From the NCBI GenBank assembly GCA_964517565.1, contig CAZFEG010000002.1, positions 1-44,913 of the forward strand: 44,913 nucleotides of DNA, in the 5' to 3' direction. A model generated the notes under the pieces. The model saw nothing but the letters and a program-made list of their open reading frames with translations. It was not told the DNA's origin and did no database searches. Of the stretch, positions 1-36,279 are shown in pieces. Position numbers and translations under genes: made by a program. This DNA is from an uncultured Methanosarcinales archaeon. GTDB lineage: Archaea; Nanobdellota; Nanobdellia; Woesearchaeales; SKGA01. How positions within the stretch are numbered: position 1 is the first letter of the stretch; every line of letters begins with the position of its first letter.

Positions 1-2
1 AT

Positions 3-1523
3 ACTATAACAAATTTTATTACTGGCGAGGAAGAGTTAATTAATGAGATAATTATTTCAAAAATAGAAAAAATCTTAACTCTTTCTTTAGATGAACAAGA
101 AATAAGTTTAACATCTTTTTTTAAAGAGAATTTTCCAGATATATCTATTAATTCTTTTTTTGAAAAACATTTTCCTAAAAAAAAAGCTCCTTCTGTTCGC
201 GTTTCCATAATTAAATCTTTCGAGAAGAAGCCTCAAAAAAGAACCATTCAAGATTTTGTTAAGCATTTTAATTTAAGATTTAAATTTCTTGAGCAATTAT
301 TAAAATCTCGTTCAGAATTATCTTCTTTAACTTCTATCAGTCGGTTGAAATCAAAAAAACCAAAAGAACGTGTTTCAGTTATAGGTATGATCTCTGAGAT
401 TAATTTAACAAAAAATGGTCATTATATTTTATTAGTTGAAGATCTTTCTGGAACTACTAAAGTTCTTATTCATAAAAATAATGCTGAATTAGTTATTGAG
501 GCCGAATCTCTTGTTCTTGATGAGGTTATTGGTATTGTTGGTTCTACTGGTAATGATATTGTTTTTTCTGAAACAATCATTCATCCAGATATTCCTTTAA
601 GTAAGGAATTAAAAAAATCTCCTTACGATAATTATGCTTTATTTTTCGGTGATATTCATTATGGTTCTAAAGAATTTTTAAAAAAAGAATTTATTCGTAT
701 GCTTTCATGGATTAATGGTAAAACAGGAACTATGGATCAAAGAAAAATTGCGAAAAAAGTAAAATACATTTTTTTAACTGGTGATGTGGTTGAGGGTGTT
801 GGTATTTATCCAAGTCAAGAAAATGATTTAGAAATTTTAGATATTCGTTCTCAATATGATTCTTTTGCAAAATATTTAGAGAAAATACCTTCCCACATTA
901 AAATAATTATTTGTCCAGGAAATCATGATGTTGGTCGTATTGCTGAACCTCAACTTCCTATTGATAAAGATTATGCAAAAGCTATATGGGCTTTACCAAA
1001 TGTAATAATGGTTTCAAATCCTGCTTATATTAGTGTTGATGTTTCTGATGATTTTCCTGGTATTGATGTTCTTATGTATCATGGTTATTCTCTTATTCAT
1101 TATGCTGATCAAGTTCCTGTACTTAGAAATCATGGTGGACAAAAAGTTGCTGACGAAATTATGGAGTTTTTATTAAAACGTAGACATCTTGCTCCAACTC
1201 ATGGTTCTGCATTGTATATTCCTGATGTTGTTGAAGATGGTTTACTTATAGATCCTATTCCTGATATTTTTGTCACAGGTCACATTCACCGCGCTCAATC
1301 AAGAGTATATCGTAACATCACTTGTATTAATAGTTCTGGTTGGACTGCTATTACTGATGATCAAGAAAAGAGAGGTTTAGAACCACAACCTGGAAGAATT
1401 TTTGTTGTTTCTCTTAAAACTCGCGAAGTTAAGATTCTTAATTTTTCTACAACCAAAGATGTTGGTTCTGTTGTTGAACGTAAGCGCTTACAAGCTCAAA
1501 GTCGCGCTAAGGTGAAAAGTTAA
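3..1523 (+). CDS. DNA polymerase II (PolD) small subunit DP1, 5'-partial. The frame is open back to the window edge, and the track start at 345 is an internal TTG.
   Basis: I translated frame 3 by hand from position 3 to 345 and found no stop. An OB-fold-like segment (VSVIGMISEINLTKNGHYILLVEDLSG) is followed by calcineurin/Mre11-type phosphoesterase motifs FFGDIHYGS, FLTGDVVEGVG, ICPGNHD, MYHGYS and FVTGHIHR, as is typical of DP1. Confidence 0.9.
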   Translation, partial: TITNFITGEEELINEIIISKIEKILTLSLDEQEISLTSFFKENFPDISINSFFEKHFPKKKAPSVRVSIIKSFEKKPQKRTIQDFVKHFNLRFKFLEQLLKSRSELSSLTSISRLKSKKPKERVSVIGMISEINLTKNGHYILLVEDLSGTTKVLIHKNNAELVIEAESLVLDEVIGIVGSTGNDIVFSETIIHPDIPLSKELKKSPYDNYALFFGDIHYGSKEFLKKEFIRMLSWINGKTGTMDQRKIAKKVKYIFLTGDVVEGVGIYPSQENDLEILDIRSQYDSFAKYLEKIPSHIKIIICPGNHDVGRIAEPQLPIDKDYAKAIWALPNVIMVSNPAYISVDVSDDFPGIDVLMYHGYSLIHYADQVPVLRNHGGQKVADEIMEFLLKRRHLAPTHGSALYIPDVVEDGLLIDPIPDIFVTGHIHRAQSRVYRNITCINSSGWTAITDDQEKRGLEPQPGRIFVVSLKTREVKILNFSTTKDVGSVVERKRLQAQSRAKVKS

Positions 1524-2024
1524 ATGTTTGTTCGTGCTAAGCTTGTGAAAGGTAATTCTTACGCTTATCTTGTCGAAAACAAATGGGTTAATGGTCGTGT
1601 AAAACAATTATCTAAAAAATATTTAGGTAGAGTTATTTTTTTAACGGATAAAAACACTTTTCCATCCCCTTCCGAGATAGATTTTTCAGAATCTAAACAA
1701 GCAATTATTAAACAAATTATTTGTTTGGAGTTCCTGCAATACAGTTTTACCTTAAATTCTAAAAAAACCATTTTATCTATGGATAATATTTCTATTAATT
1801 TATTAAAAGGAAAAATTAAGAAGAATAAGAAAGATATTGTTTTGTTTCTTAATGGTCGTTATGTATATGGTACTATTTTGTCTCAATTAATAGATTTCCT
1901 CCAACCAGAGTCTCATGAAGATACTAAAGGTGAAAAACTTGCTACAGCATTTAGTGATGCAGGTATATCTATTTCTCAGGATCAATTTATTCAATTATAC
2001 AAAAAAATATATTTTAATGTTTAA
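1524..2024 (+). CDS. Hypothetical protein (166 aa) whose ATG directly abuts the DP1 stop codon
   Basis: The long ORF has a TAA|ATG junction at 1521-1526. I recognise no family. The N-terminus is MFVRAKLVKGNSYAYLVENKWVNGRVKQLSKKYLGRV. Confidence 0.5.
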   Translation: MFVRAKLVKGNSYAYLVENKWVNGRVKQLSKKYLGRVIFLTDKNTFPSPSEIDFSESKQAIIKQIICLEFLQYSFTLNSKKTILSMDNISINLLKGKIKKNKKDIVLFLNGRYVYGTILSQLIDFLQPESHEDTKGEKLATAFSDAGISISQDQFIQLYKKIYFNV

Positions 2025-2026
2025 TT

Positions 2027-2362
2027 TTAGTCAAAATATTTTTTTAATTTTGTACCTATGTAGAGTCCAGCAAAATAGATAATTATTATAAGAAATTTAT
2101 TATAACTGAAAATAAGTAGGCCTATAAGAAATATTAGCACATTAATTATAATAATTATGTCTATTTCTGGTTTAAATAATTTTGTGCTTGTAAACAAAAG
2201 GCCAGCAAGAATTGCGATGAAGAATATGAGTGGTGTTTTTCCTATTACCCAAGAGAGGAGTAATCCTCCAAAAAAACTTAATAAAACAAAGTATACGAAC
2301 CAATAGTCCTCTATATTTGATAATTGTTTACCAATATTTCCAAGGATGCCTGCTATTGCCAT
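2027..2362 (-). CDS. Small integral membrane protein (111 aa)
   Basis: The translation has three to four hydrophobic spans. No family motif was recognised. Confidence 0.5.
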   Translation of the reverse strand: MAIAGILGNIGKQLSNIEDYWFVYFVLLSFFGGLLLSWVIGKTPLIFFIAILAGLLFTSTKLFKPEIDIIIIINVLIFLIGLLIFSYNKFLIIIIYFAGLYIGTKLKKYFD

Positions 2363-2403
2363 TTTAAGAAATTCTTATATAATTTTTAATATTCTTATCT
2401 TTT

Positions 2404-2676
2404 ATGTTTTTATTTAAATTATTCGGTTTTTTAGATTTTTTAGTGGCTATTTTGCTATTTGTAACACCTGATCATATTGCTCCTATAAGGCTTCTTATCG
2501 GCGCAGGCTTATATCTTATAGCTAAAGGAGTTATCTATAAAGGTGATTTGTTAAGTGCTATAGATCTTTCTATAGGAGTATATTGTCTTCTAGCAATTAT
2601 TTTCCCAATCACTTTTCTAAGTTTTTTAACAGGAATTTATTTATTTCTTAAAGGATTTTATTCTATGATTATTTAG
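2404..2676 (+). CDS. Small integral membrane protein (90 aa)
   Basis: The sequence is hydrophobic throughout, with about three TM spans. Confidence 0.45.
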   Translation: MFLFKLFGFLDFLVAILLFVTPDHIAPIRLLIGAGLYLIAKGVIYKGDLLSAIDLSIGVYCLLAIIFPITFLSFLTGIYLFLKGFYSMII

Positions 2677-3410
2677 ATATGTTTTCGTAGATATTTATTG
2701 AATAAAACCCAGAACAATCCTCCTATGAGAACAGCAATCATTGGCGCGTAATATGCACTTATTATTGTTGCTATTGCAAAGGCTATTGAGAATATGAATA
2801 ATACAAAGTAAGGTAGTTTTCTTGAATAAAACAAGTGCACCCCTATATTGTTTGGTGCTGGTATAAGTGCGAAAACTGCGAATAGTGCTGCAATAATCAT
2901 TCCATGATGAAAAAAATATAATCCCGTTACAAGATAGGTCATTTGAAAGAATATTGATAGGAAAATGCACGCTATTGGTGCTGTTGCAAGTATGAGAAAT
3001 ATGTCTTTTTTGTTTTCTCCAGGGAGAACAACACCGTGTCTTAGTCTTGCAATTGTTTCTGTTTCAATCATTCCTGGGAAAAAAATAGGTAAATAACTGT
3101 TTGTTATGAAACTTAATACGAAGCCCACAAGTAAACCTTCAAACCAAGATTTATATGTTGCAGTATATTTTTTTCGTATTGCAATAATTTTTGTTACTGC
3201 TATAAATATAAACAAAATTATTCCTATGAGTATAATCATTGTTAGAATTCTTGAGAGAATGTTTGTTATTGTGAGTTCTATATCTTGCCAGAAGAATTTG
3301 GCGAAGAACATAAACATAGTTATTGCTATGATAATTGTTGTAATAATCATACCTCTTATTTCGCTTGGATTAAACGAAAAGTACCTTTTAAAATGGTATT
3401 GATATGTCAT
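2673..3410 (-). CDS. Multi-pass membrane protein (245 aa)
   Basis: There are six or more hydrophobic spans. No HExxH or other catalytic motif was seen. The antisense and alternative-frame ORFs at 2695-2970, 3106-3402 and 3285-3644 are judged spurious. Confidence 0.6.
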   Translation of the reverse strand: MTYQYHFKRYFSFNPSEIRGMIITTIIIAITMFMFFAKFFWQDIELTITNILSRILTMIILIGIILFIFIAVTKIIAIRKKYTATYKSWFEGLLVGFVLSFITNSYLPIFFPGMIETETIARLRHGVVLPGENKKDIFLILATAPIACIFLSIFFQMTYLVTGLYFFHHGMIIAALFAVFALIPAPNNIGVHLFYSRKLPYFVLFIFSIAFAIATIISAYYAPMIAVLIGGLFWVLFNKYLRKHI

Positions 3411-3482
3411 TATTCTTCTTTTGAGAATATATTGTTTAAATACTTTGCTTTAATATGGTCTTTTCAAAGAAGTATTAATGTC

Positions 3483-3890
3483 TTAAATGTTGGTTTTTAT
3501 AGAATATTTTGTACCACAAGCTTGACATTTAACAAAATAAATTCCTGTATCTTTTGTTATTGTTGTGTCTGGTTTTCCGCATTCTTTACATATTACGAAT
3601 TGATCTGTGAATTGTTGTACTCGTTCATTTATTTTGTTTGCTGAAAGTTTCGTGTTGAATATAACGAATGTTCCTTCTACTTGTCCTTTTGTTGCAAGTT
3701 GTTTTTCAACATATTTTACAAGCAAAGGTACTTTTCTTCCGAGTGTTGTTGCTATTTGTTTAAAATTACTAATTACTGTTTTATTTCCTTGAAGATGTCC
3801 TTTTACTTTAGGTATTTGAAATCTTTCTCCTTTATTTGTATCTTCAGGTAAAAGTTCTCGGCCTCTTTGTAACATTGCTTCGTAATCCAT
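3483..3890 (-). CDS. eif2b: Translation initiation factor aIF2 beta subunit
   Basis: The layout matches archaeal aIF2-beta: RFQIPKVKGHLQGNKTVISNFKQIA...LVKYVEKQLATKGQVEG, followed by a C-terminal zinc ribbon CKECGKPDT...CQACG. Confidence 0.9.
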   Translation of the reverse strand: MDYEAMLQRGRELLPEDTNKGERFQIPKVKGHLQGNKTVISNFKQIATTLGRKVPLLVKYVEKQLATKGQVEGTFVIFNTKLSANKINERVQQFTDQFVICKECGKPDTTITKDTGIYFVKCQACGTKYSIKTNI

Positions 3891-3938
3891 TGTATTTGAG
3901 AAAAGAAGTCTTCTTTTTAAAGCTTCTTATGCTTTTAT

Positions 3939-6900
3939 TTAAAATCCTGTGAGACTCGTTTGCTTTTCTTTTTCTTTACCAAACACATCCAAGATTCGTT
4001 TTTGTGTGAGTTGAAGTGTTTCTTTAAGATATGGTGAAACATTATATTCTTCAGCCAGGTTGATACTCATCTGCATATATTTAATTATTGATCCTTCTGA
4101 TATGGTAAAGATTATCTTTCCACCGCAAGTAGTACATTTTCCAACAAGTGGTGGTCTTCTGTATTTTTCGTTACAATGTACGCAGCGAAATTTTTGGAGT
4201 GAGAATTTTCTCAAATTACCTTTTGTATCTCTTATGAAATGTTTTTCTATTATAAGTCTTGCAACGTCTGTTGTATCAACAGCACGTATTTTTTTTGCTA
4301 AAGCCATTTGCCCGTCTATTTTTTCTTTCATAGAAGGGATTGTTTTGTATGCTGAGCAGAGCACTCCTGAATTTATATTGTCTGTGTCATGTGTGAACAT
4401 CATTCCTTCAAATTGTTCTTCTGTGAATAATGTATTATTTATTTGTTTAATTTTTATATCCCAAGGATATTTATATTCTTCACAAGCTTTATAAAATTCC
4501 AAAGGATATTTGTCAACGATATCCACATTAAATGCCATGTCATCAACTTCTGCAGGGTTGAGGAGTGTTGTAAGTACAATGGGGGCATCCATTGTTGATC
4601 CTCTGCTTGTTCCTAAAAATTTTTGTGAAAAATTAAGAAATGCATCCATAAGTAGGAATGCGCACGATTCATCTCCGTCACAGTCTCGCCTCATTGCAGC
4701 GTGATAAAGGGGGTGTGCTAGAAATCCTTGTGTTTTTGAAAAACCAATTATTCTTCCAATCATTCCTGCAGATGTGTGTGGTGCGAGTCCTATTATGAGT
4801 TGTCCTATGAGATCTTTTGTTTTTTTCGCATTATAGTATGCTGGTAAATTGTAGAGTTGTTGTAGTTCTTCATCAATAAATTTTGTTGCATTAAGTAATA
4901 TTTCTGCACTACCTTTGTCTGGAGAAACATCTGATGCTGGCAAAACTACATCTTGTGCTCGTAATTCTAGAACTTGGTTTTCATTTTCTAATGTTTTTCC
5001 ATAAACATCTTTTTTATATCCTAATTGTTTTAATCTGTTGATCGAAGTTCCTATTTCTTTTGGTTTAAAGTGTGTGAGTGTTATTTCGCTTGCATCAAAT
5101 CGTATTGTTCCGTCTTTGTTTACTGCAACATCGTTTTTTGCTCTAAGTATTGCTTTCAATAAATGTTCGGGGGTTTTGTCTCTTCCAACCGTTCCCCTCA
5201 CTCCTTTAATAAGGTCTGGATATATTTTTGTATCCATTTTTTTAAGGCAATAAGAAAAGAGATCTTTAATTGGCACGTTCCATTCTTTATAATCTGAATA
5301 TTGTTTATCTGGGTGTTTCTCTGCTTCTTCAGGGCTAATTTCTTCTCCTGTTTTCCAGTCAATTTTTTGTCGTATGGTTTTTGTTTCACACATATCACAT
5401 ATAGAAAAAGGTGTTCTGTTTTTACATTGAGGACATAAAAATACTGGAAATAAACTCGTTACTTTTCCTGCAATGAGTGCTGATTGAAAACTTCTTAACC
5501 GGCCGCCATCATTTCCTACTGGAAAAAGTCCGTGTGGTGAACCAGTCATTTTTCTCATTTTTGCTTTTTCTGGTCGACCCATTCGACCCCCAATAAATAT
5601 TCCTGACAAATCTTTGATGATAACAGGACTAATAATGTTGATAAGTTTTAGACTTTCTGTTTCTCCTTCATTTATTTGTTCGTTAATTATTTTCTCAATG
5701 TGTTTTGCATCGAGTGCTGATTTTATTTGTAATGTTTCACTAATTGCAAACACTGTTTCTCCTGTAATGCTTACCGTTTCATCTTTTACTTTGTGTGGAA
5801 CCCCCAATAATTCGAGCGCTCTTTTTCCTTTTTTAAATTCTTCTTTTAAGGGAATATTTATTTTTGGGATTTCTAGAAAGAATTCTGCATTTGATAGCCA
5901 ACGAACTAATTCTAAAAGTTGTTTTGTGTTTATTTCTTTGTAAAAAAATATGTGTTCTGGATGGAGAGGAATATTTAATCCGAGAGAAAGTTTTTTTGCC
6001 ATTTCATAAGATATTTTTGTTGTGTGTGGTTTTTCAAATATTTTTTTCAAATCGTTTTCATCTATATCATATGTTTTTGTGCAGAATTGTATTCTTGCTG
6101 CGTCATCTATTTTATATTCTTTGCTTGTTTGTTCGCTAAATTCTTCATCAATTGCTTTTTTGAGTTCTAGTAACCAATATTCTTCAGAGTATCCTGAGGG
6201 GATAAGCATGTGTGCTCTGTCAAAGAAGTCACCGTAGTTTACAAGGACATCCCCCAAATAGAGTATTTCTTTTACTTCTTTTGTTATTTTGTTTCCTTCT
6301 TCTTCTGAAGAAATATAAAGAACACTTCCGTCGTTAAGTTTTACTATTGGTCCTCTGATTGTGTCGCATGGAGTGAATGCTGCAGCTTTTCCTGGTCGTT
6401 CAACTTTAAGTTGTGTTCCTGTTGCGATAAAGTCATCTAGTACACTCATTGTTGCAGGGTGTATGCTTTGTCCTGAGTATCCGCTAGCACGTCCACGTCC
6501 GTATCTTAATCGAAAACCGCCGCTTCTCATAGGGTGTGCAAGAACAGGTCTTCCACCAACCAAATCTTTTACAAAGGTTGCATCTGGCTTTACTTTTTCT
6601 TCACTTGCATTATCTGTTTTTTCTTCTTGCGTATTTTCTGCATCTTTTGCTTTTAGTTCTTTTTGAAATTTAATGTGTTTTTCTAGAAAGTTCCAGTCAT
6701 CCATGCCAAAGTCTTTTCCCCAGTTTCCTAGTTGTTTCCAGAGTTTTGGTGCTTTCAAAGGGATGCATGATGAATGTATAAGACAATACCCGCTTCGTAG
6801 AAAATTAGTTTCTACTCGCTTAAGATCTTTGAGGCTTGCGTTGGATAATTCTCTTTTTTCAGATGGATCCCCCGCTATTTCAACAGGAATATTTTCTAAT

Positions 6901-7607
6901 AAAAATTCTGTTTCTTCTTTGAATGGGAAGTATTGTAAGTTAGCAACATATTGATGGTAATCTTCTAGTTCTGCATAGCATCGTCGTATCTCTTTTTCGT
7001 CAGGATCATATTTTGCGTAGCCCATTTGTTTTCGAACGTAGTCTGCGATAAGGACGCTTGTTGCTGCCGCTGTTCCTCCCGCATTTCGTATTGGTCCTGA
7101 ATAATTGAGTCTGAAGTATTCTCCTTTTCCATCTCTTCGAGGTTTTATGTCTATACTTGTCAATCCTTCAAGAGGTGCAGAGACAACACCTACAGTTACA
7201 TATGCGAATCCTGTTCGTATTCCCACTTCTATTGCTTCTTTTTTATCTTCGAATGTGCAGAATTTTTCTTGAGCTATTTCGTGTGCTATTTTGAAAGCAA
7301 CTCTCCAATCTTGTGAACTGTATTCTTTTTCAAGTTCAATAATTCTCTCAACAACTCCACTCCCAATAATTTGTGGTGCTACAAAAGCTATAATTCCTAC
7401 AACTCTTTCAGCCATATTTTTAGCTAGCGTTATTTCAACGTAATCTTCTGGGTCAAAGCCTTTTTTTCTGGCTTTTTGAGCTATCGCGTATGCTTCTTGA
7501 GTTTTATTTTCTAATTCTTCGAAGTATCTATTAATAGAAGGGCTACAAGCCATGTCTGTTTCAATCATTGTGCTATACCGTATAAGGGTTGAGTTCAATT
7601 TTAGCAA
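3939..7607 (-). CDS. DNA polymerase II (PolD) large catalytic subunit DP2
   Basis: The size (1222 aa) is typical for DP2. It has several Cys4 zinc modules (CPQCKNRTPFSICDMCE; CVHCNEKYRRPPLVGKCTTCGG) and conserved blocks such as GGRPVLAHPMRSGGFRLRYGRGR and LAPHTSAGMIGRIIGF. The real start may be ATG at 7568 (MIETD) or 7553 (MACSP). Confidence 0.95.
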   Translation of the reverse strand: MLKLNSTLIRYSTMIETDMACSPSINRYFEELENKTQEAYAIAQKARKKGFDPEDYVEITLAKNMAERVVGIIAFVAPQIIGSGVVERIIELEKEYSSQDWRVAFKIAHEIAQEKFCTFEDKKEAIEVGIRTGFAYVTVGVVSAPLEGLTSIDIKPRRDGKGEYFRLNYSGPIRNAGGTAAATSVLIADYVRKQMGYAKYDPDEKEIRRCYAELEDYHQYVANLQYFPFKEETEFLLENIPVEIAGDPSEKRELSNASLKDLKRVETNFLRSGYCLIHSSCIPLKAPKLWKQLGNWGKDFGMDDWNFLEKHIKFQKELKAKDAENTQEEKTDNASEEKVKPDATFVKDLVGGRPVLAHPMRSGGFRLRYGRGRASGYSGQSIHPATMSVLDDFIATGTQLKVERPGKAAAFTPCDTIRGPIVKLNDGSVLYISSEEEGNKITKEVKEILYLGDVLVNYGDFFDRAHMLIPSGYSEEYWLLELKKAIDEEFSEQTSKEYKIDDAARIQFCTKTYDIDENDLKKIFEKPHTTKISYEMAKKLSLGLNIPLHPEHIFFYKEINTKQLLELVRWLSNAEFFLEIPKINIPLKEEFKKGKRALELLGVPHKVKDETVSITGETVFAISETLQIKSALDAKHIEKIINEQINEGETESLKLINIISPVIIKDLSGIFIGGRMGRPEKAKMRKMTGSPHGLFPVGNDGGRLRSFQSALIAGKVTSLFPVFLCPQCKNRTPFSICDMCETKTIRQKIDWKTGEEISPEEAEKHPDKQYSDYKEWNVPIKDLFSYCLKKMDTKIYPDLIKGVRGTVGRDKTPEHLLKAILRAKNDVAVNKDGTIRFDASEITLTHFKPKEIGTSINRLKQLGYKKDVYGKTLENENQVLELRAQDVVLPASDVSPDKGSAEILLNATKFIDEELQQLYNLPAYYNAKKTKDLIGQLIIGLAPHTSAGMIGRIIGFSKTQGFLAHPLYHAAMRRDCDGDESCAFLLMDAFLNFSQKFLGTSRGSTMDAPIVLTTLLNPAEVDDMAFNVDIVDKYPLEFYKACEEYKYPWDIKIKQINNTLFTEEQFEGMMFTHDTDNINSGVLCSAYKTIPSMKEKIDGQMALAKKIRAVDTTDVARLIIEKHFIRDTKGNLRKFSLQKFRCVHCNEKYRRPPLVGKCTTCGGKIIFTISEGSIIKYMQMSINLAEEYNVSPYLKETLQLTQKRILDVFGKEKEKQTSLTGF

Positions 7608-10136: not shown

Positions 10137-11543
10137 TTGGCTCCAAAGAAAAAATCTAAAAATGAACAACTACAAGAAAAATTAGTGTATGATCGAGAAA
10201 GCACTTGGCTTTCCTATAAACCAGCTGATATGAAAAAAGTTTTTGCTTTTTCTGAAAAATATAAAGACTTTTTGTCATCTAGTAAAACCGAGCGTCTTTG
10301 TACAGCAAATGTCATTTCTGCTTTGACAAAATCTGGTTTTAAGAACATTTCTTCTGTTAAAAAGGCGAAACCTTTTGATAAACTTTTTAAGGTTTTCAAA
10401 AACAAAACTGTTATCGCATTTATTGTTGGAAAGAATCCTGAAGATGTACACATTATTGGAAGTCATATGGATTCTCCACGTTTAGATCTCAAACCTTTAC
10501 CATTATATGAGGATGCTGATCTTGCATTACTCCAATCACATTATTATGGTGGTGTAAAAAAATATCATTGGGTTAATTTACCTCTTGCTTTGCATGGTGT
10601 GATTTTCACGAAGAAAGGAAAGAAAGTAACTTTATCAATTGGTGAAAAAGATTCTGAACCAAAATTCCTTATTCCTGATCTCTTACCTCATTTAGGTCGT
10701 GATCAACTTGATAGAAAAGGTTCTAAGGTTGTATCTGGAGAAGAACTTAATATTGTTGTTGGAAGTTTACCTGTAAATGATAAGGCTATAAAAGAACAAG
10801 TAAAGTTCGCTATCTTAAAAAAATTACATGAAGACTATGGTTTAATTGAAGAAGATTTTGCAACAGCAGAATTAGAATTTGTTCCAGCAAGTAAAGCTGT
10901 TGATGTTGGTTTTGATAGATCTTTAATTGGTGCCTATGGTCAAGATGACAAGGTTTGTGTATATACTTCTCTTCAAGCACTTCTTTCAATTAGTAATCCT
11001 TCAAAAACGGCTGTTGCTTTGTTTGTTGATAAGGAAGAAATTGGTTCTGTTGGTGATACTGGTGCTGATAGTTTTATACTAAAAACCTTTGCTGAAGATT
11101 ATGTTAAGCTTCTAGGTCTAAAAATTACTTCAAATAAAATTTTAGAACTCGCAAAAGCTATCTCTGCAGATGTTACTGCGGGACTTAATCCTAATTATAA
11201 GGATGTTCAAGATTCTCAAAACGTTTCTTTCTTAGGACACGGCGTTTCTGTAGAAAAATATGGTGGTGGTGGAGGAAAATATAGTACGAATGATGCGCAC
11301 GCAGAATATATGTCCTTTATCCGTTTACTCGTTGACAAACATAAAGTTCCTTGGCAAACAGGAGAAATGGGCAAGATAGATATTGGCGGCGGAGGCACTA
11401 TTGCTATGTTTATGTCAAGATATGGTATGGATACTGTTGATGTTGGTCCTTGCGTCTTAGGAATGCATTCTCCTTGCGAGTTAACCTCAAAATCTGATGT
11501 ATATTCAGCATATTTATTTTACAAAGCCTTTTTTGAAGCTTAG
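10137..11543 (+). CDS. M18-family aminopeptidase (aspartyl/Ape-like)
   Basis: Motifs GSHMDSPRLDLKP, YGQDDKVCV, VDKEEIGS and LGMHSPCEL are present. The TTG start is preceded by GAGGTG. Confidence 0.8.
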   Translation: MAPKKKSKNEQLQEKLVYDRESTWLSYKPADMKKVFAFSEKYKDFLSSSKTERLCTANVISALTKSGFKNISSVKKAKPFDKLFKVFKNKTVIAFIVGKNPEDVHIIGSHMDSPRLDLKPLPLYEDADLALLQSHYYGGVKKYHWVNLPLALHGVIFTKKGKKVTLSIGEKDSEPKFLIPDLLPHLGRDQLDRKGSKVVSGEELNIVVGSLPVNDKAIKEQVKFAILKKLHEDYGLIEEDFATAELEFVPASKAVDVGFDRSLIGAYGQDDKVCVYTSLQALLSISNPSKTAVALFVDKEEIGSVGDTGADSFILKTFAEDYVKLLGLKITSNKILELAKAISADVTAGLNPNYKDVQDSQNVSFLGHGVSVEKYGGGGGKYSTNDAHAEYMSFIRLLVDKHKVPWQTGEMGKIDIGGGGTIAMFMSRYGMDTVDVGPCVLGMHSPCELTSKSDVYSAYLFYKAFFEA

Positions 11544-28721: not shown

Positions 28722-29177
28722 TTATTTCTCGATACTTAAATAAACGAATTCTTCATTATTAATAATTATTTTTTCTATTTTCCTTTCTTTCTTAAGTTCT
28801 TGAACATATCTATAGAATGTTGCTTTCGAGCAATACTTTCTTCGATCAACAAATTCTTTTTTTAATTCTTTAAGTGCGAGGTTAGTTGTAGAAATTTGAA
28901 GCATTATTTCTTGTAGTATAATCTCTTTTTTGTGTCTCACTGCTTGTTGAGGTAATCTCACAGTCTCAATGAGTTCTGTAATTTCTTCTTCATTGTCTTC
29001 AATGATTGTTGTCTCAAAAGGACTAATTCCTTCAAATTCTTGTGTTTGAACTGTTCTGCTTTCTTCTTTAAGTCTCTGAAGAAGTTCTTCGAGCCGATTA
29101 ATGAGTATTTTTACCTCATTAACTCCTTTTCTTTCTCTATTTTCTTTGCTTTTTTCGTATTTGAACAGATCTTTCAC
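28722..29177 (-). CDS. Hypothetical protein with a C-terminal winged-helix-like DNA-binding region (151 aa)
   Basis: The C-terminus YCSKATFYRYVQELKKERKIEKIIINNEEFVYLSI resembles an HTH recognition helix plus wing. The N-terminal half is a charged coiled region. Confidence 0.5.
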   Translation of the reverse strand: MKDLFKYEKSKENRERKGVNEVKILINRLEELLQRLKEESRTVQTQEFEGISPFETTIIEDNEEEITELIETVRLPQQAVRHKKEIILQEIMLQISTTNLALKELKKEFVDRRKYCSKATFYRYVQELKKERKIEKIIINNEEFVYLSIEK

Positions 29178-29242
29178 AATAGATTAGAATTATCCTTTAA
29201 ATTATAAGGTTTTTTCTATTTTCCAACAAAAACTCTTGTTTT

Positions 29243-29381
29243 TGAGACTGTCTCAGTTAGTCTCAGAGACGCTACCTGAGACTCCATTCAGTCTCACAAG
29301 CCTTCTACCCTTAATCTCCATAGGAAACAAGGGGGTGTCTCAACCTGAGACTGTCTCACCAAGAGACTATTTGTTGAGACT
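29243..29381. repeat. Array of 11 GAGAC/GTCTC pentamers. It includes two copies of the 13-bp palindrome TGAGACTGTCTCA and one GTCTCAGAGAC.
   Basis: I counted the copies by hand. They start at 29244, 29250, 29260, 29266, 29278, 29291, 29337, 29347, 29353, 29363 and 29376. Confidence 0.9.
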
Positions 29382-29535
29382 AACCTTCATTTCCTCTTTT
29401 TGTAAGCTCTTTTACTTTCACTGGACACCCACTCATAAGCTATTTAAACGTCCCAAATATTCTTACTATTAATGGATCACCCCCTCATAATAAGTTTATG
29501 AGTGAAATAAAAAGGGAAACCAAGGAGGTATAACC

Positions 29536-29814
29536 ATGGAACAAATAAACGTAGATAAGAACACACCCGAAAAGAAATTTCGAGCAAGTCCCCTTACAGC
29601 AACTGTTTGGGCAAACGAAGTACAAACAAAAGAAGGCGAAACAAGAATGTACAGAACAGTTAGTCTTGAACGCTCATACAAGGACAAAGAAGGTTCTTGG
29701 AAATCAACAAATTCTCTAAGAATAAGCGATTTACCTAAAGCAACTCTTCTTTTAAACAAGGTTTTCGAGTACGTCAGCTTTAAAGATGAACCAGATTTGA
29801 TTGGAGAAGAGTGA
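29536..29814 (+). CDS. Small conserved-looking protein (92 aa), possibly a PC4/YdbC-like ssDNA-binding fold, co-transcribed with radA
   Basis: A strong SD (AAGGAGGT) lies 7 nt before the ATG. The segment RSYKDKEGSWKSTNSLRISDLPKATLLLNKVFEYV resembles the PC4 pattern REYW.D.EG...G.KGISL....W..L. The stop lies 5 nt before the radA ATG. Confidence 0.6.
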   Translation: MEQINVDKNTPEKKFRASPLTATVWANEVQTKEGETRMYRTVSLERSYKDKEGSWKSTNSLRISDLPKATLLLNKVFEYVSFKDEPDLIGEE

Positions 29815-35881: not shown

Positions 35882-36279
35882 TATTCAAGAACCTCTATGC
35901 CTTTATGTAGTGTTTGAAATCCTTCTTCTATTTTTTCTCTATCTGATATGAATTCGTGTGTTCTAGGGTGGATAAGCCAGCTTTGATTTGTTTCTGGATT
36001 TGCAAAAATAATTGTTAGTTTTCTATTTGCAATAAATTGTTCCCACGACTTGTATAATTCTTCTATATTTTCTTTTGTGTTGGAACAGATTAAATATATT
36101 GTTTCTTTTTCTTTTGCATATTTGCTTATTTTTTGTAATTGTTCGTTAATATAATAATGTTTTTTTCCTTTTTTTTCTTCAACAAGTATGTTATTCTCAT
36201 TAAATGTTTGTTTAAGTATTTGTTTTTTCATACTGTCTTTATAGGTGATGTTGTGTTTTGTCCATTCATAGAGCTCCAT
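35881..36279 (-). CDS. Hypothetical protein (132 aa), translationally coupled to radB (TAATG overlap)
   Basis: It is a long ORF whose stop overlaps the radB ATG by 1 nt. No family was recognised. Confidence 0.5.
   Translation of the reverse strand: MELYEWTKHNITYKDSMKKQILKQTFNENNILVEEKKGKKHYYINEQLQKISKYAKEKETIYLICSNTKENIEELYKSWEQFIANRKLTIIFANPETNQSWLIHPRTHEFISDREKIEEGFQTLHKGIEVLE

Follow-up and report, generated by a model that had tools for sequence, protein, structure and literature searches.

A composite module was identified in the intergenic region upstream of radA in contig CAZFEG010000002.1 (assembly GCA_964517565.1) of an uncultured archaeon. The whole stretch of DNA analysed, 44,913 nucleotides in length, is referred to here as the window. 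The module comprises two arrays of GAGAC/GTCTC sites, a single origin recognition box (ORB) lying between them, and an adjacent minus-strand gene encoding a 151-amino acid (aa) protein with a coiled coil and a winged helix (family A). ORB is the binding-site consensus of the initiator Orc1/Cdc6. Relatives of its RadA protein assign the organism to the Woesearchaeota/Nanoarchaeota (DPANN), and in this lineage the module is situated between rpl14e and the radA operon. The coordinates of the features are given in Table 1, in which loci of other genomes and metagenomes are designated by L numbers.

Table 1. Coordinates of the module and of related features (positions refer to the window unless a locus is named)
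Feature	Position	Strand	Composition or basis
Single canonical ORB TCCATAGGAAACAAGGGGGT, Orc1/Cdc6 binding-site consensus	29317..29336	+	Consensus match and conservation
Left arm, six sites	29243..29296	.	TGAGAC 29243-48, GTCTCA 29250-55, GTCTCA 29260-65, GAGAC 29266-70, TGAGAC 29277-82, GTCTCA 29291-96
Right arm, five sites	29337..29380	.	GTCTCA 29337-42, TGAGAC 29346-51, GTCTCA 29353-58, GAGAC 29363-67, TGAGAC 29375-80
Gene of the 151-aa coiled-coil and winged-helix protein (family A), putative TGAGAC binder	28722..29177	-	AlphaFold2 (AF2) model, conservation, context
Palindromic TATA-like box CCTTATAATTTAAAGG, putative promoter of the 151-aa gene	29194..29209	-	Sequence reading
Four extra GTCTC sites, one strand	28934..29076	-	Within the linker-coding part of the 151-aa gene; overlooked in the preliminary description
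Examples of family-B genes (ORB inside the coding region)	L137 12293-12958; L118 4664-5353; also L088, L096, L125, L184, L189 and others		

The pentamer GAGAC/GTCTC occurs 56 times in the window, and 11 of these copies start within 29244-29376, forming an array that spans 29244-29380. The count of 11 given in a preliminary description of this DNA was exact (starts at 29244, 29250, 29260, 29266, 29278, 29291, 29337, 29347, 29353, 29363 and 29376). As stated there, nine of the 11 sites show the extended form TGAGAC/GTCTCA, the exceptions being the AGAGAC sites at 29266 and 29363. The two identical 13-bp palindromes (TGAGACTGTCTCA) are present at 29243-29255 and 29346-29358, 103 bp apart, as is the opposite arrangement GTCTC-A-GAGAC at 29260-29270. 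A search for the palindrome TGAGACNGTCTCA elsewhere in the window with up to two mismatches returned a single weak match at 36279. Outside the array neighbourhood the pentamer occurs at 0.92 sites/kb, which corresponds to 0.12 sites per 139 bp, and 0.24 sites are expected in 139 bp from the local base composition. The Poisson probability of at least 11 sites is 2.5e-18, and GAGAC shows the most extreme local clustering of all 512 pentamers in the window. The reported local enrichment in G+C was also recovered (47% in the array, about 33% in the window).

The 41-bp gap between the two clusters of sites contains the canonical ORB, which had been overlooked, and the first GTCTCA of the right arm abuts the 3' G-run of this box. 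The four GTCTC sites located inside the 151-aa gene compare with 0.13 expected in 143 bp (P ~1e-5). Across all family-A genes the excess of GTCTC is weak (15 observed, 7.7 expected, P = 0.013) and is contributed mostly by this window. A 78-aa open reading frame (ORF) across the array (29236-29472) had been regarded as an artefact of the repeat; its lack of conservation in relatives supports this view.

The central element conserved across the radA-linked loci reads TTCCAyAGGAAAyAAGGGGGTGT. Among the radA loci compared, it occurs once per locus, in constant orientation relative to radA, and is restricted to the loci that bear the arrays. It matches both the published archaeal ORB consensus (CTTCCAGTGGAAACGAAAGGGGT) and the form found in Methanomassiliicoccales (GTTCCAGTGGAAATGG-AGGGGT) (PMC4153887, Table 2). 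A metagenome scan for the ORB 20-mer returned at least 120 loci, and a viral collection added eight. Orc1/Cdc6 was encoded by seven of the ten tested ORFs of about 400 aa that adjoin the 20-mer, and likewise in two further loci; orc1/cdc6 lies within 1.5 kb of the identical 20-mer in at least 23 metagenomic loci. In three loci that were inspected (L176, L204 and L166), the ORB is one member of an inverted pair around an AT-rich element of 130-200 bp, which is the classical oriC layout. The central element is a genuine ORB, because it matches the consensus and because the same 20-mer is found beside orc1/cdc6. The GAGAC sites themselves are not ORBs; they bracket one ORB.

Conservation was examined in 80 radA loci from species-level genomes, a comparison of upstream regions that had been proposed as a check. 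The array is kept in nine of the 80 loci (L001-6, L008, L010 and L021; G+C 30-44%), where 7-14 GAGAC sites fall within a stretch of 200 bp at the corresponding position, some 600 bp upstream of radA. Between relatives the spacers have diverged, and what is retained is limited to the TGAGAC(T) sites and the ORB. The order array-ORB-array is conserved in related Woesearchaeota, and arms equivalent to those of the window were found in the other 18 modules analysed; L003 has a degenerate version. Clusters of TGAGAC in 227 kb of family-A loci are confined to the module, apart from the intragenic trio of this window.

The grammar of the sites was derived from 193 sites in 19 modules. In 93% of the sites GAGAC is preceded by T, and in 64% it is followed by T. 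Neighbouring sites are most often 6 bp apart, where they abut in direct or palindromic arrangement, or 11 bp apart; sites of the same orientation are separated by 11, 22, 32-33, 43 and 54 bp. The periodicity at 11.1 bp (R = 0.40) was reached in none of 2000 randomisations, a statistic that overstates independence because the modules are related by descent. Each module contains one copy of the ORB, and in 10 of the 19 a GTCTC site abuts the G-run of this box (GGGGGTGTCTCA, at +22). Recurrent positions relative to the ORB are approximately +48, +63, +69 and +80 in the right arm and approximately -18, -37, -49, -60 and -72 in the left arm. Such a grammar points to a protein array that follows one helical face to the left and right of the ORB. 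Relatives have between zero and two palindromes, and where two are present their spacing varies (103 bp in this window and approximately 118 bp in L002 and L153). Looping between the two palindromes was rejected as a conserved feature because palindromes are inconsistently present, many relatives having one or none.

Every family-A gene that could be placed adjoins GTCTC arrays and an ORB. The module occurs in the rpl14e/radA context in this window and in L001-6, L008, L010, L021, L081, L213 and L215, and in three unrelated contexts that lack radA (L082/L083, L084 and L214). The close relative L007, whose RadA is 78% identical, lacks the family-A gene, the arrays and the ORB, all three, and nonetheless retains the promoter and leader of the operon formed by radA and a 92-aa ORF. 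Among the matches listed for the ORB 20-mer in metagenomes, a family-A match was found only where GAGAC arrays are present. The winged-helix gene, the arrays and the ORB are therefore a unit of inheritance, since they co-occur across contexts and vanish together in L007. For the same reasons radA is merely a neighbour, and the array is not a dedicated radA operator. Of the earlier proposal of a multi-site operator for a dimeric winged-helix regulator, the part that stands is that the sites accompany the 151-aa winged-helix gene next to them in all its occurrences; in every context examined they are inherited together with this gene and lie near its promoter. The parts that fall are the loop between the palindromes, which is not conserved, and the link to radA, which is incidental.

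The AF2 model of the 151-aa protein shows an N-terminal helix (residues 5-45), a disordered acidic linker (44-72) and a confidently modelled C-terminal winged helix (80-147). Its orthologues, 141-212 aa in length, are found in all ten loci. Family A comprises 46 clusters, and all named sources are metagenome-assembled genomes of the Woesearchaeota/Nanoarchaeota type. In the recognition helix (stretch CSKATFYRY), the residues C116, S117, Y122 and R123 show no variation and Y115, K118, A119 and Y124 almost none, despite an overall identity within the family that falls to about 25-30%. Foldseek searches with the model returned only generic winged-helix matches (HlyU/ArsR, SSV1 F-93, Fur and PadR). 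The TATA-like box described earlier for this gene is present slightly to the left of the 29205-29215 reported, at a distance of 35 bp from the first TGAGAC site. Two copies of a perfect 15-bp direct repeat (TTTTTTCTATTTTCC), one in the 3' part of the gene (28769-28783) and the other just upstream of its promoter (29210-29224), approximately enclose the gene; their sequence is rich in T, and the match may be due to chance.

A second family of winged-helix genes (family B) is associated with the same box. Among the matches listed, 18 of 135 ORB copies lie in open frames of at least 150 aa, read in the frame SIGNKGV, and 14 of these cluster as family B. In the family-B proteins, about 220 aa in length, a low-complexity linker joins an N-terminal coiled coil to a C-terminal winged helix, and their genes carry one or two exact ORBs inside the linker-coding region. 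Translation of the 20-mer in these genes gives S-I/T-G-N-K-G-V, and microsatellite-like repeats, for example (CAGA)n, TCAACA, TTAACAC and (TTCA)n, flank it. Tandem ORBs located 43 bp apart (L137, L088 and L118) are read in two different frames (VPQEIRGF and STGNKGV), which indicates conservation at the DNA level. A protein-level search returned at least 2033 clusters, named as hypothetical or helix-turn-helix proteins, from Pacearchaeota and Nanoarchaeota. In the best 120 of these clusters the motif takes the form S-[I/T/S]-G-N-x-G-[V/A], in which x is unconstrained; invariant residues correspond to invariant bases of the ORB and the variable residue to its spacer. A reading of the 20-mer as a conserved peptide motif (SIGNKGV), and not as a DNA element, was rejected, since the 20-mer is intergenic in family A, occurs in tandem copies read in two frames in family B and is found beside orc1, and since the amino-acid variation in family B tracks the degeneracy of the ORB. 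As to gene neighbourhood, a winged-helix gene of about 95 aa is usually located directly upstream of the family-B gene, and a paralogous coiled-coil gene lies beyond it on the opposite strand in convergent orientation.

In L137 and L184, a few kb separate the family-B gene from the genes for Orc1 and DNA polymerase D (PolD), and in L137 its distance from a textbook oriC is about 5 kb. This oriC (L137 7360-7545), directly upstream of orc1, consists of degenerate ORBs with two mismatches each, inverted around an almost pure A+T element of 125 bp; the perfect ORBs of the same genome are 5 kb away, inside the family-B gene. Because L137 has this textbook oriC upstream of orc1, the family-B ORBs are read as extra initiator boxes near the origin and not as the origin. 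The ORB 20-mer was also detected in an 11-kb IMG/VR contig of a tailed virus (L205), at 10348-10367 beside a (GTA)n run. Genes for the major capsid protein, portal and large terminase were recognized in this contig by PHROGs. These data suggest that DPANN viruses borrow the Orc1/Cdc6 box of the host. A small ORF family near the ORB is common to five loci (L205, L206, L101, L165 and L090).

The anatomy, conservation, phasing, ORB identity and gene linkage described above can be combined in one proposal, to which we give modest preference: TGAGAC(T) would represent iteron-like sites for the adjacent winged-helix protein, placed around an Orc1/Cdc6 site, and the whole would be a portable composite module. 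The arrays, the ORB and the winged-helix gene would then act as one cis-linked unit of an origin-like or initiator-control kind. The winged-helix protein would bind as dimers, whose pair of DNA-binding domains would be carried on flexible linkers, to TGAGAC(T) sites of either orientation in steps of 6 bp or about 11 bp and would coat one face of the DNA on both arms, and a monomer of Orc1/Cdc6 would bind the ORB between the arms. In solved Orc1-ORB complexes, the G-run side of the ORB is contacted by the side of the protein that carries the AAA+ domain and the initiator-specific motif (ISM). At the site abutting the G-run, a winged-helix domain would come to lie beside the side of Orc1/Cdc6 that contacts this part of the ORB. 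The assembly may modulate Orc1/Cdc6 by stabilising, sequestering or remodelling it, following the logic of the datA and DARS loci or of iteron plasmids; occasional origin activity, as an accessory or captured replicator, is a further possible outcome. The winged-helix gene would be autoregulated through its promoter, 35 bp from the arrays. The family-B arrangement with an ORB inside the gene, the placement of these ORBs in L137 and the viral ORB lend support by analogy. A wider generalization can be put forward only tentatively and may well fail: DPANN organisms with a single Orc1/Cdc6 might possess a hitherto unrecognised class of ORB-linked winged-helix modules, in which a coiled-coil and winged-helix gene is fused or adjacent to an exact Orc1/Cdc6 box with lineage-specific short repeats, acting as a cis-encoded second layer of initiation control or as portable accessory replicators, also in viruses.

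Several observations weigh against this proposal. The winged-helix fold is generic, and no likeness of the 151-aa protein to Rep, RepA, the winged-helix domain of Orc1, WhiP or TubR was found with Pfam, NCBIfam, PDB sequences or Foldseek. The homology of families A and B is statistically unsupported (hhalign E = 0.025, probability 2%), though the architecture is common to both. Both arms are located upstream of two core promoters, a geometry that also fits plain transcriptional control, and the shared descent of the modules weakens the periodicity statistic as noted above. In Sulfolobus oriC1, ORB2 and ORB3 are each required and a single ORB is insufficient (PMC12141716). The ribosomal-protein operon (13.5-28.7 kb) runs towards the module, and the GC skew is positive from 9 to 36 kb; for these two reasons strong origin firing is unlikely.

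A set of ORB-like initiator-binding repeats at a replication origin had been among the earlier suggestions, and part of it survives in that a genuine ORB sits between the arrays. The GAGAC sites are not ORBs, and the features of a canonical origin are largely missing. The ORB consensus is present (TCCATAGGAAACAAGGGGGT), whereas at least two inverted ORBs around an AT-rich unwinding element are not: one intergenic ORB was detected at up to two mismatches, and the sole other match in the window lies at 6870, inside the gene for DP2. The ORB is flanked by arrays of 47% G+C, in contrast with the canonical loci L176, L204, L166 and L137, and the AT-rich stretches lie outside both arms. The location of orc1/cdc6 and the cumulative GC skew had been proposed as checks. 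No orc1/cdc6 was detected in the window by tblastn with ten Orc1/Cdc6 queries, and no Cdc6-like domain was present among the window ORFs scanned against Pfam, so that the adjacent orc1 gene expected of an oriC is lacking. The skew has no extremum at 29.3 kb, and nearly all long ORFs from 7.7 to 35 kb are on the plus strand, with no switch of gene orientation at the module.

The fetched loci with the best PolD match (L093 and L164, 46-50% identity) show the order ORB, orc1, DP1 and DP2, and the window begins in DP1; on these grounds the canonical oriC is probably situated just beyond the left end of the window, about 30 kb from the module. This order recurs in several DPANN contigs (L093, L164, L137, L184 and L185). 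In the window itself (1-7607), which starts inside DP1, the DP2 gene is inverted and four small genes separate DP1 and DP2. As background, 208 complete Nanobdellota genomes have been rotated to orc1 (bioRxiv 10.64898/2026.05.13.725050). The module is probably not the main origin (oriC) of the genome, and it is predicted from its sequence to be an accessory Orc1/Cdc6-binding locus.

The same findings bear on the idea that the module is an active chromosomal origin, secondary or captured, with the winged-helix protein as an origin-specific co-initiator like WhiP at Sulfolobus oriC3 or a plasmid Rep protein. Its canonical ORB, the linkage in cis of a replicator to a DNA-binding gene, its portability, the AT-rich flanks of the arrays and the virus contig with the same ORB beside repeats are all compatible with this idea, and for archaea the capture of replicator-initiator pairs from extrachromosomal elements has been documented (PMC4010727). 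The single ORB with neither an inverted partner nor an AT-rich element between ORBs, the lack of orc1 in the window, the unchanged skew and gene orientation at 29.3 kb, the head-on encounter of a leftward fork with the ribosomal-protein operon and the gene order of L093 and L164, which places the canonical oriC left of the window, together make an active origin clearly unlikely. Rather unlikely, too, is a pure transcriptional operator or upstream activating sequence through which the winged-helix protein regulates itself and perhaps the 92-aa/radA operon, with the ORB serving as a transcription-factor site that has no role in replication. Divergent layouts of regulator and target are common, the arrays are upstream of both the TATA-like box of the 151-aa gene (by 35-90 bp) and the conserved TATA box at 29440-49 (by about 60 bp), and an Orc1 paralogue is described as a DNA-damage regulator in Sulfolobus (PMC9738581). 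Yet this promoter geometry is not kept: a gene intervenes in L084, the ORB is reversed in L214 and the ORB of family B is located in coding sequence. In addition, radA is missing from three contexts, the promoter and leader are intact in L007, which lacks the module, and at least ten phased sites around an exact initiator box far exceed the typical need of autoregulation.

A centromere-like partition site, bound by a winged-helix centromere-binding protein of the TubR/tubC, ParR/parC or ParG/parH type near an initiator site, would account for two arms of helically phased short repeats in both orientations, for their position beside a gene of a small dimeric DNA-binding protein and for the single cluster per locus. 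It is very improbable: no NTPase of the ParA, TubZ or SegA type was found among the called genes and Pfam matches of L081-L084 and L213-L215, none turned up among the window ORFs scanned, and the invariant central ORB is left unexplained. Hardly any credence is given to a structured non-coding RNA gene or to a clustered target of a type IIS restriction-modification system, the latter being the third of the earlier suggestions. GTCTC is a known type IIS recognition sequence, and the region is richer in G+C and gives RNA folds with z = -3.9 and -4.3 in the window. Both strands, however, fold equally, the folds are significant in only some relatives (not in L006, z = -1.6, or L082, z = -0.5), the 13-bp palindromes would leave loops of 1 nt, and no Rfam or tRNA match was obtained in scans of the window. 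As a type IIS target, the array has no support: the pentamer is not clearly avoided, with 41 copies outside the module against about 52 expected in the whole window (standard deviation 7.7), and the sites are conserved with 11-bp phasing. A scan of the window ORFs, which was not exhaustive, showed no restriction-modification domains.

The other genes of the window include those encoding the PolD subunits DP1 (truncated at the left edge) and DP2, Hef and a PriS-like primase. From 13.5 to 28.7 kb, plus-strand ORFs follow one another without interruption and represent, by synteny with L081, a ribosomal-protein operon including SecY. Near and after the array lie the minus-strand 151-aa gene, the 92-aa ORF and the genes for RadA, Pelota, an FmrO-like methyltransferase and TrmB; GyrA and ScpB are also encoded. 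The stop codon of the 92-aa ORF (29536-29814), which is conserved in relatives, overlaps the start of radA, with which it is co-transcribed. The label 'PC4-like' previously given to this ORF was not confirmed, as no match was found in Pfam, NCBIfam or PDB sequences and Foldseek did not return PC4. A single-sequence model (pLDDT 66) shows a sheet of three to four strands and a C-terminal helix, a topology compatible with PC4. The TATTTAAA box reported at 29441 is present and conserved in relatives.

The 92-aa/radA operon has a conserved leader (29419-29535), which was found in 11 of 81 radA loci, including L007, which has no GAGAC module, and L022, which has a G+C content of 62%. The sequence CACTGGACA (29419-27) is located about 8 nt upstream of a region containing the TFB recognition element and TATA box (ataagCTATTTAAAc, 29435-49). 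In the leader hairpin, CTCAT (29484-88) pairs with ATGAG (29498-502), and the stem co-varies, with other pairs in L001, L002, L006 and L008. The near-invariant sequence TGAAATAAgAaGGGAaACCAAGGAGG stands immediately before the ATG. No Rfam match was obtained for 29419-29535. The leader is a candidate cis-regulatory leader RNA.

Literature searches by motif and for ORB with iterons returned no description of one ORB flanked on both sides by phased arrays of another motif, nor of the cis-linked winged-helix family or of the sister family with the ORB in coding sequence. The ORB itself is already known. To our knowledge, replication control in DPANN archaea has not been studied experimentally, and we know of no described archaeal initiator box that works with a dedicated cis-encoded accessory factor. 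Co-occupancy by the winged-helix protein and Orc1/Cdc6, if true, would make the module such a box, and its closest analogues would be the bacterial iteron plasmids and the datA and DARS loci. Family B would be unusual in that a binding site of a replication protein constrains protein sequence across thousands of lineages. If the module is only an autoregulatory operator, it still provides a well-defined pair of regulator and sites and corrects the assumption that the array regulates radA. The locus is compact enough for testing with a DNA fragment of 150 bp, the 151-aa protein and a single Orc1/Cdc6.

Several known systems resemble the module in part. The canonical archaeal oriC (Sulfolobus oriC1 and Pyrococcus oriC) has the same ORB consensus in the same register, TCCA-NN-GGAAAY-NNN-GGGGT, whereas the module has one ORB rather than at least two inverted copies, no unwinding element, no adjacent orc1 and G+C-richer flanking arrays of a second motif. 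In parC/ParR, tubC/TubR, parH/ParG and the SV40 origin with its GAGGC sites for T antigen, very short phased direct and inverted repeats nucleate a protein-DNA complex. The arrays of the module are of this kind, but no gene for a partner NTPase or helicase is present here, and those systems lack a central initiator box. Essential non-ORB elements or non-Orc1 proteins also have precedents at archaeal origins. The ucm element of Sulfolobus oriC1 is a single 11-bp site inside the unwinding element and is bound by UBP, a saddle-shaped nucleoid protein that is abundant and binds at hundreds of sites (PMC12141716), and WhiP acts at oriC3 (PMC4010727). Neither is homologous to the parts of the module.

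The origin of phage lambda lies inside gene O, and oriL of SPP1 lies inside gene 38. Family B resembles these phages in that initiator-related sites are embedded in the linker-coding part of the gene of a DNA-binding protein; it differs in that the embedded site is the box of the host initiator and the surrounding repeats are microsatellite-like. The datA and DARS loci of Escherichia coli are clusters of initiator boxes outside the origin that control initiator activity, with IHF and Fis as second proteins. In Haloarcula, an ORB cluster downstream of oriC2 has been modelled as a site of initiator control (PMC4010727). The module likewise contains an initiator box outside the canonical origin, in its wider neighbourhood, together with sites for a putative second DNA-binding protein. 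It differs from these loci in having a single box rather than a cluster, and a dedicated cis-encoded second factor rather than a general nucleoid protein. The iteron origins of the plasmids pSC101, P1, F and RK2 combine DnaA boxes, iterons and an adjacent winged-helix rep gene. As in these plasmids, a host-initiator box is found beside helically phased short repeats, and the promoter of an adjacent winged-helix gene lies beside the repeats. Unlike them, the module is an archaeal chromosomal locus with an ORB as its box, its repeats are 6-7 bp long and occur in both orientations (iterons, 17-22 bp), and homology to Rep is not detectable. By analogy with the known systems compared here, the module would work most like a combination of iterons with a host-initiator box.

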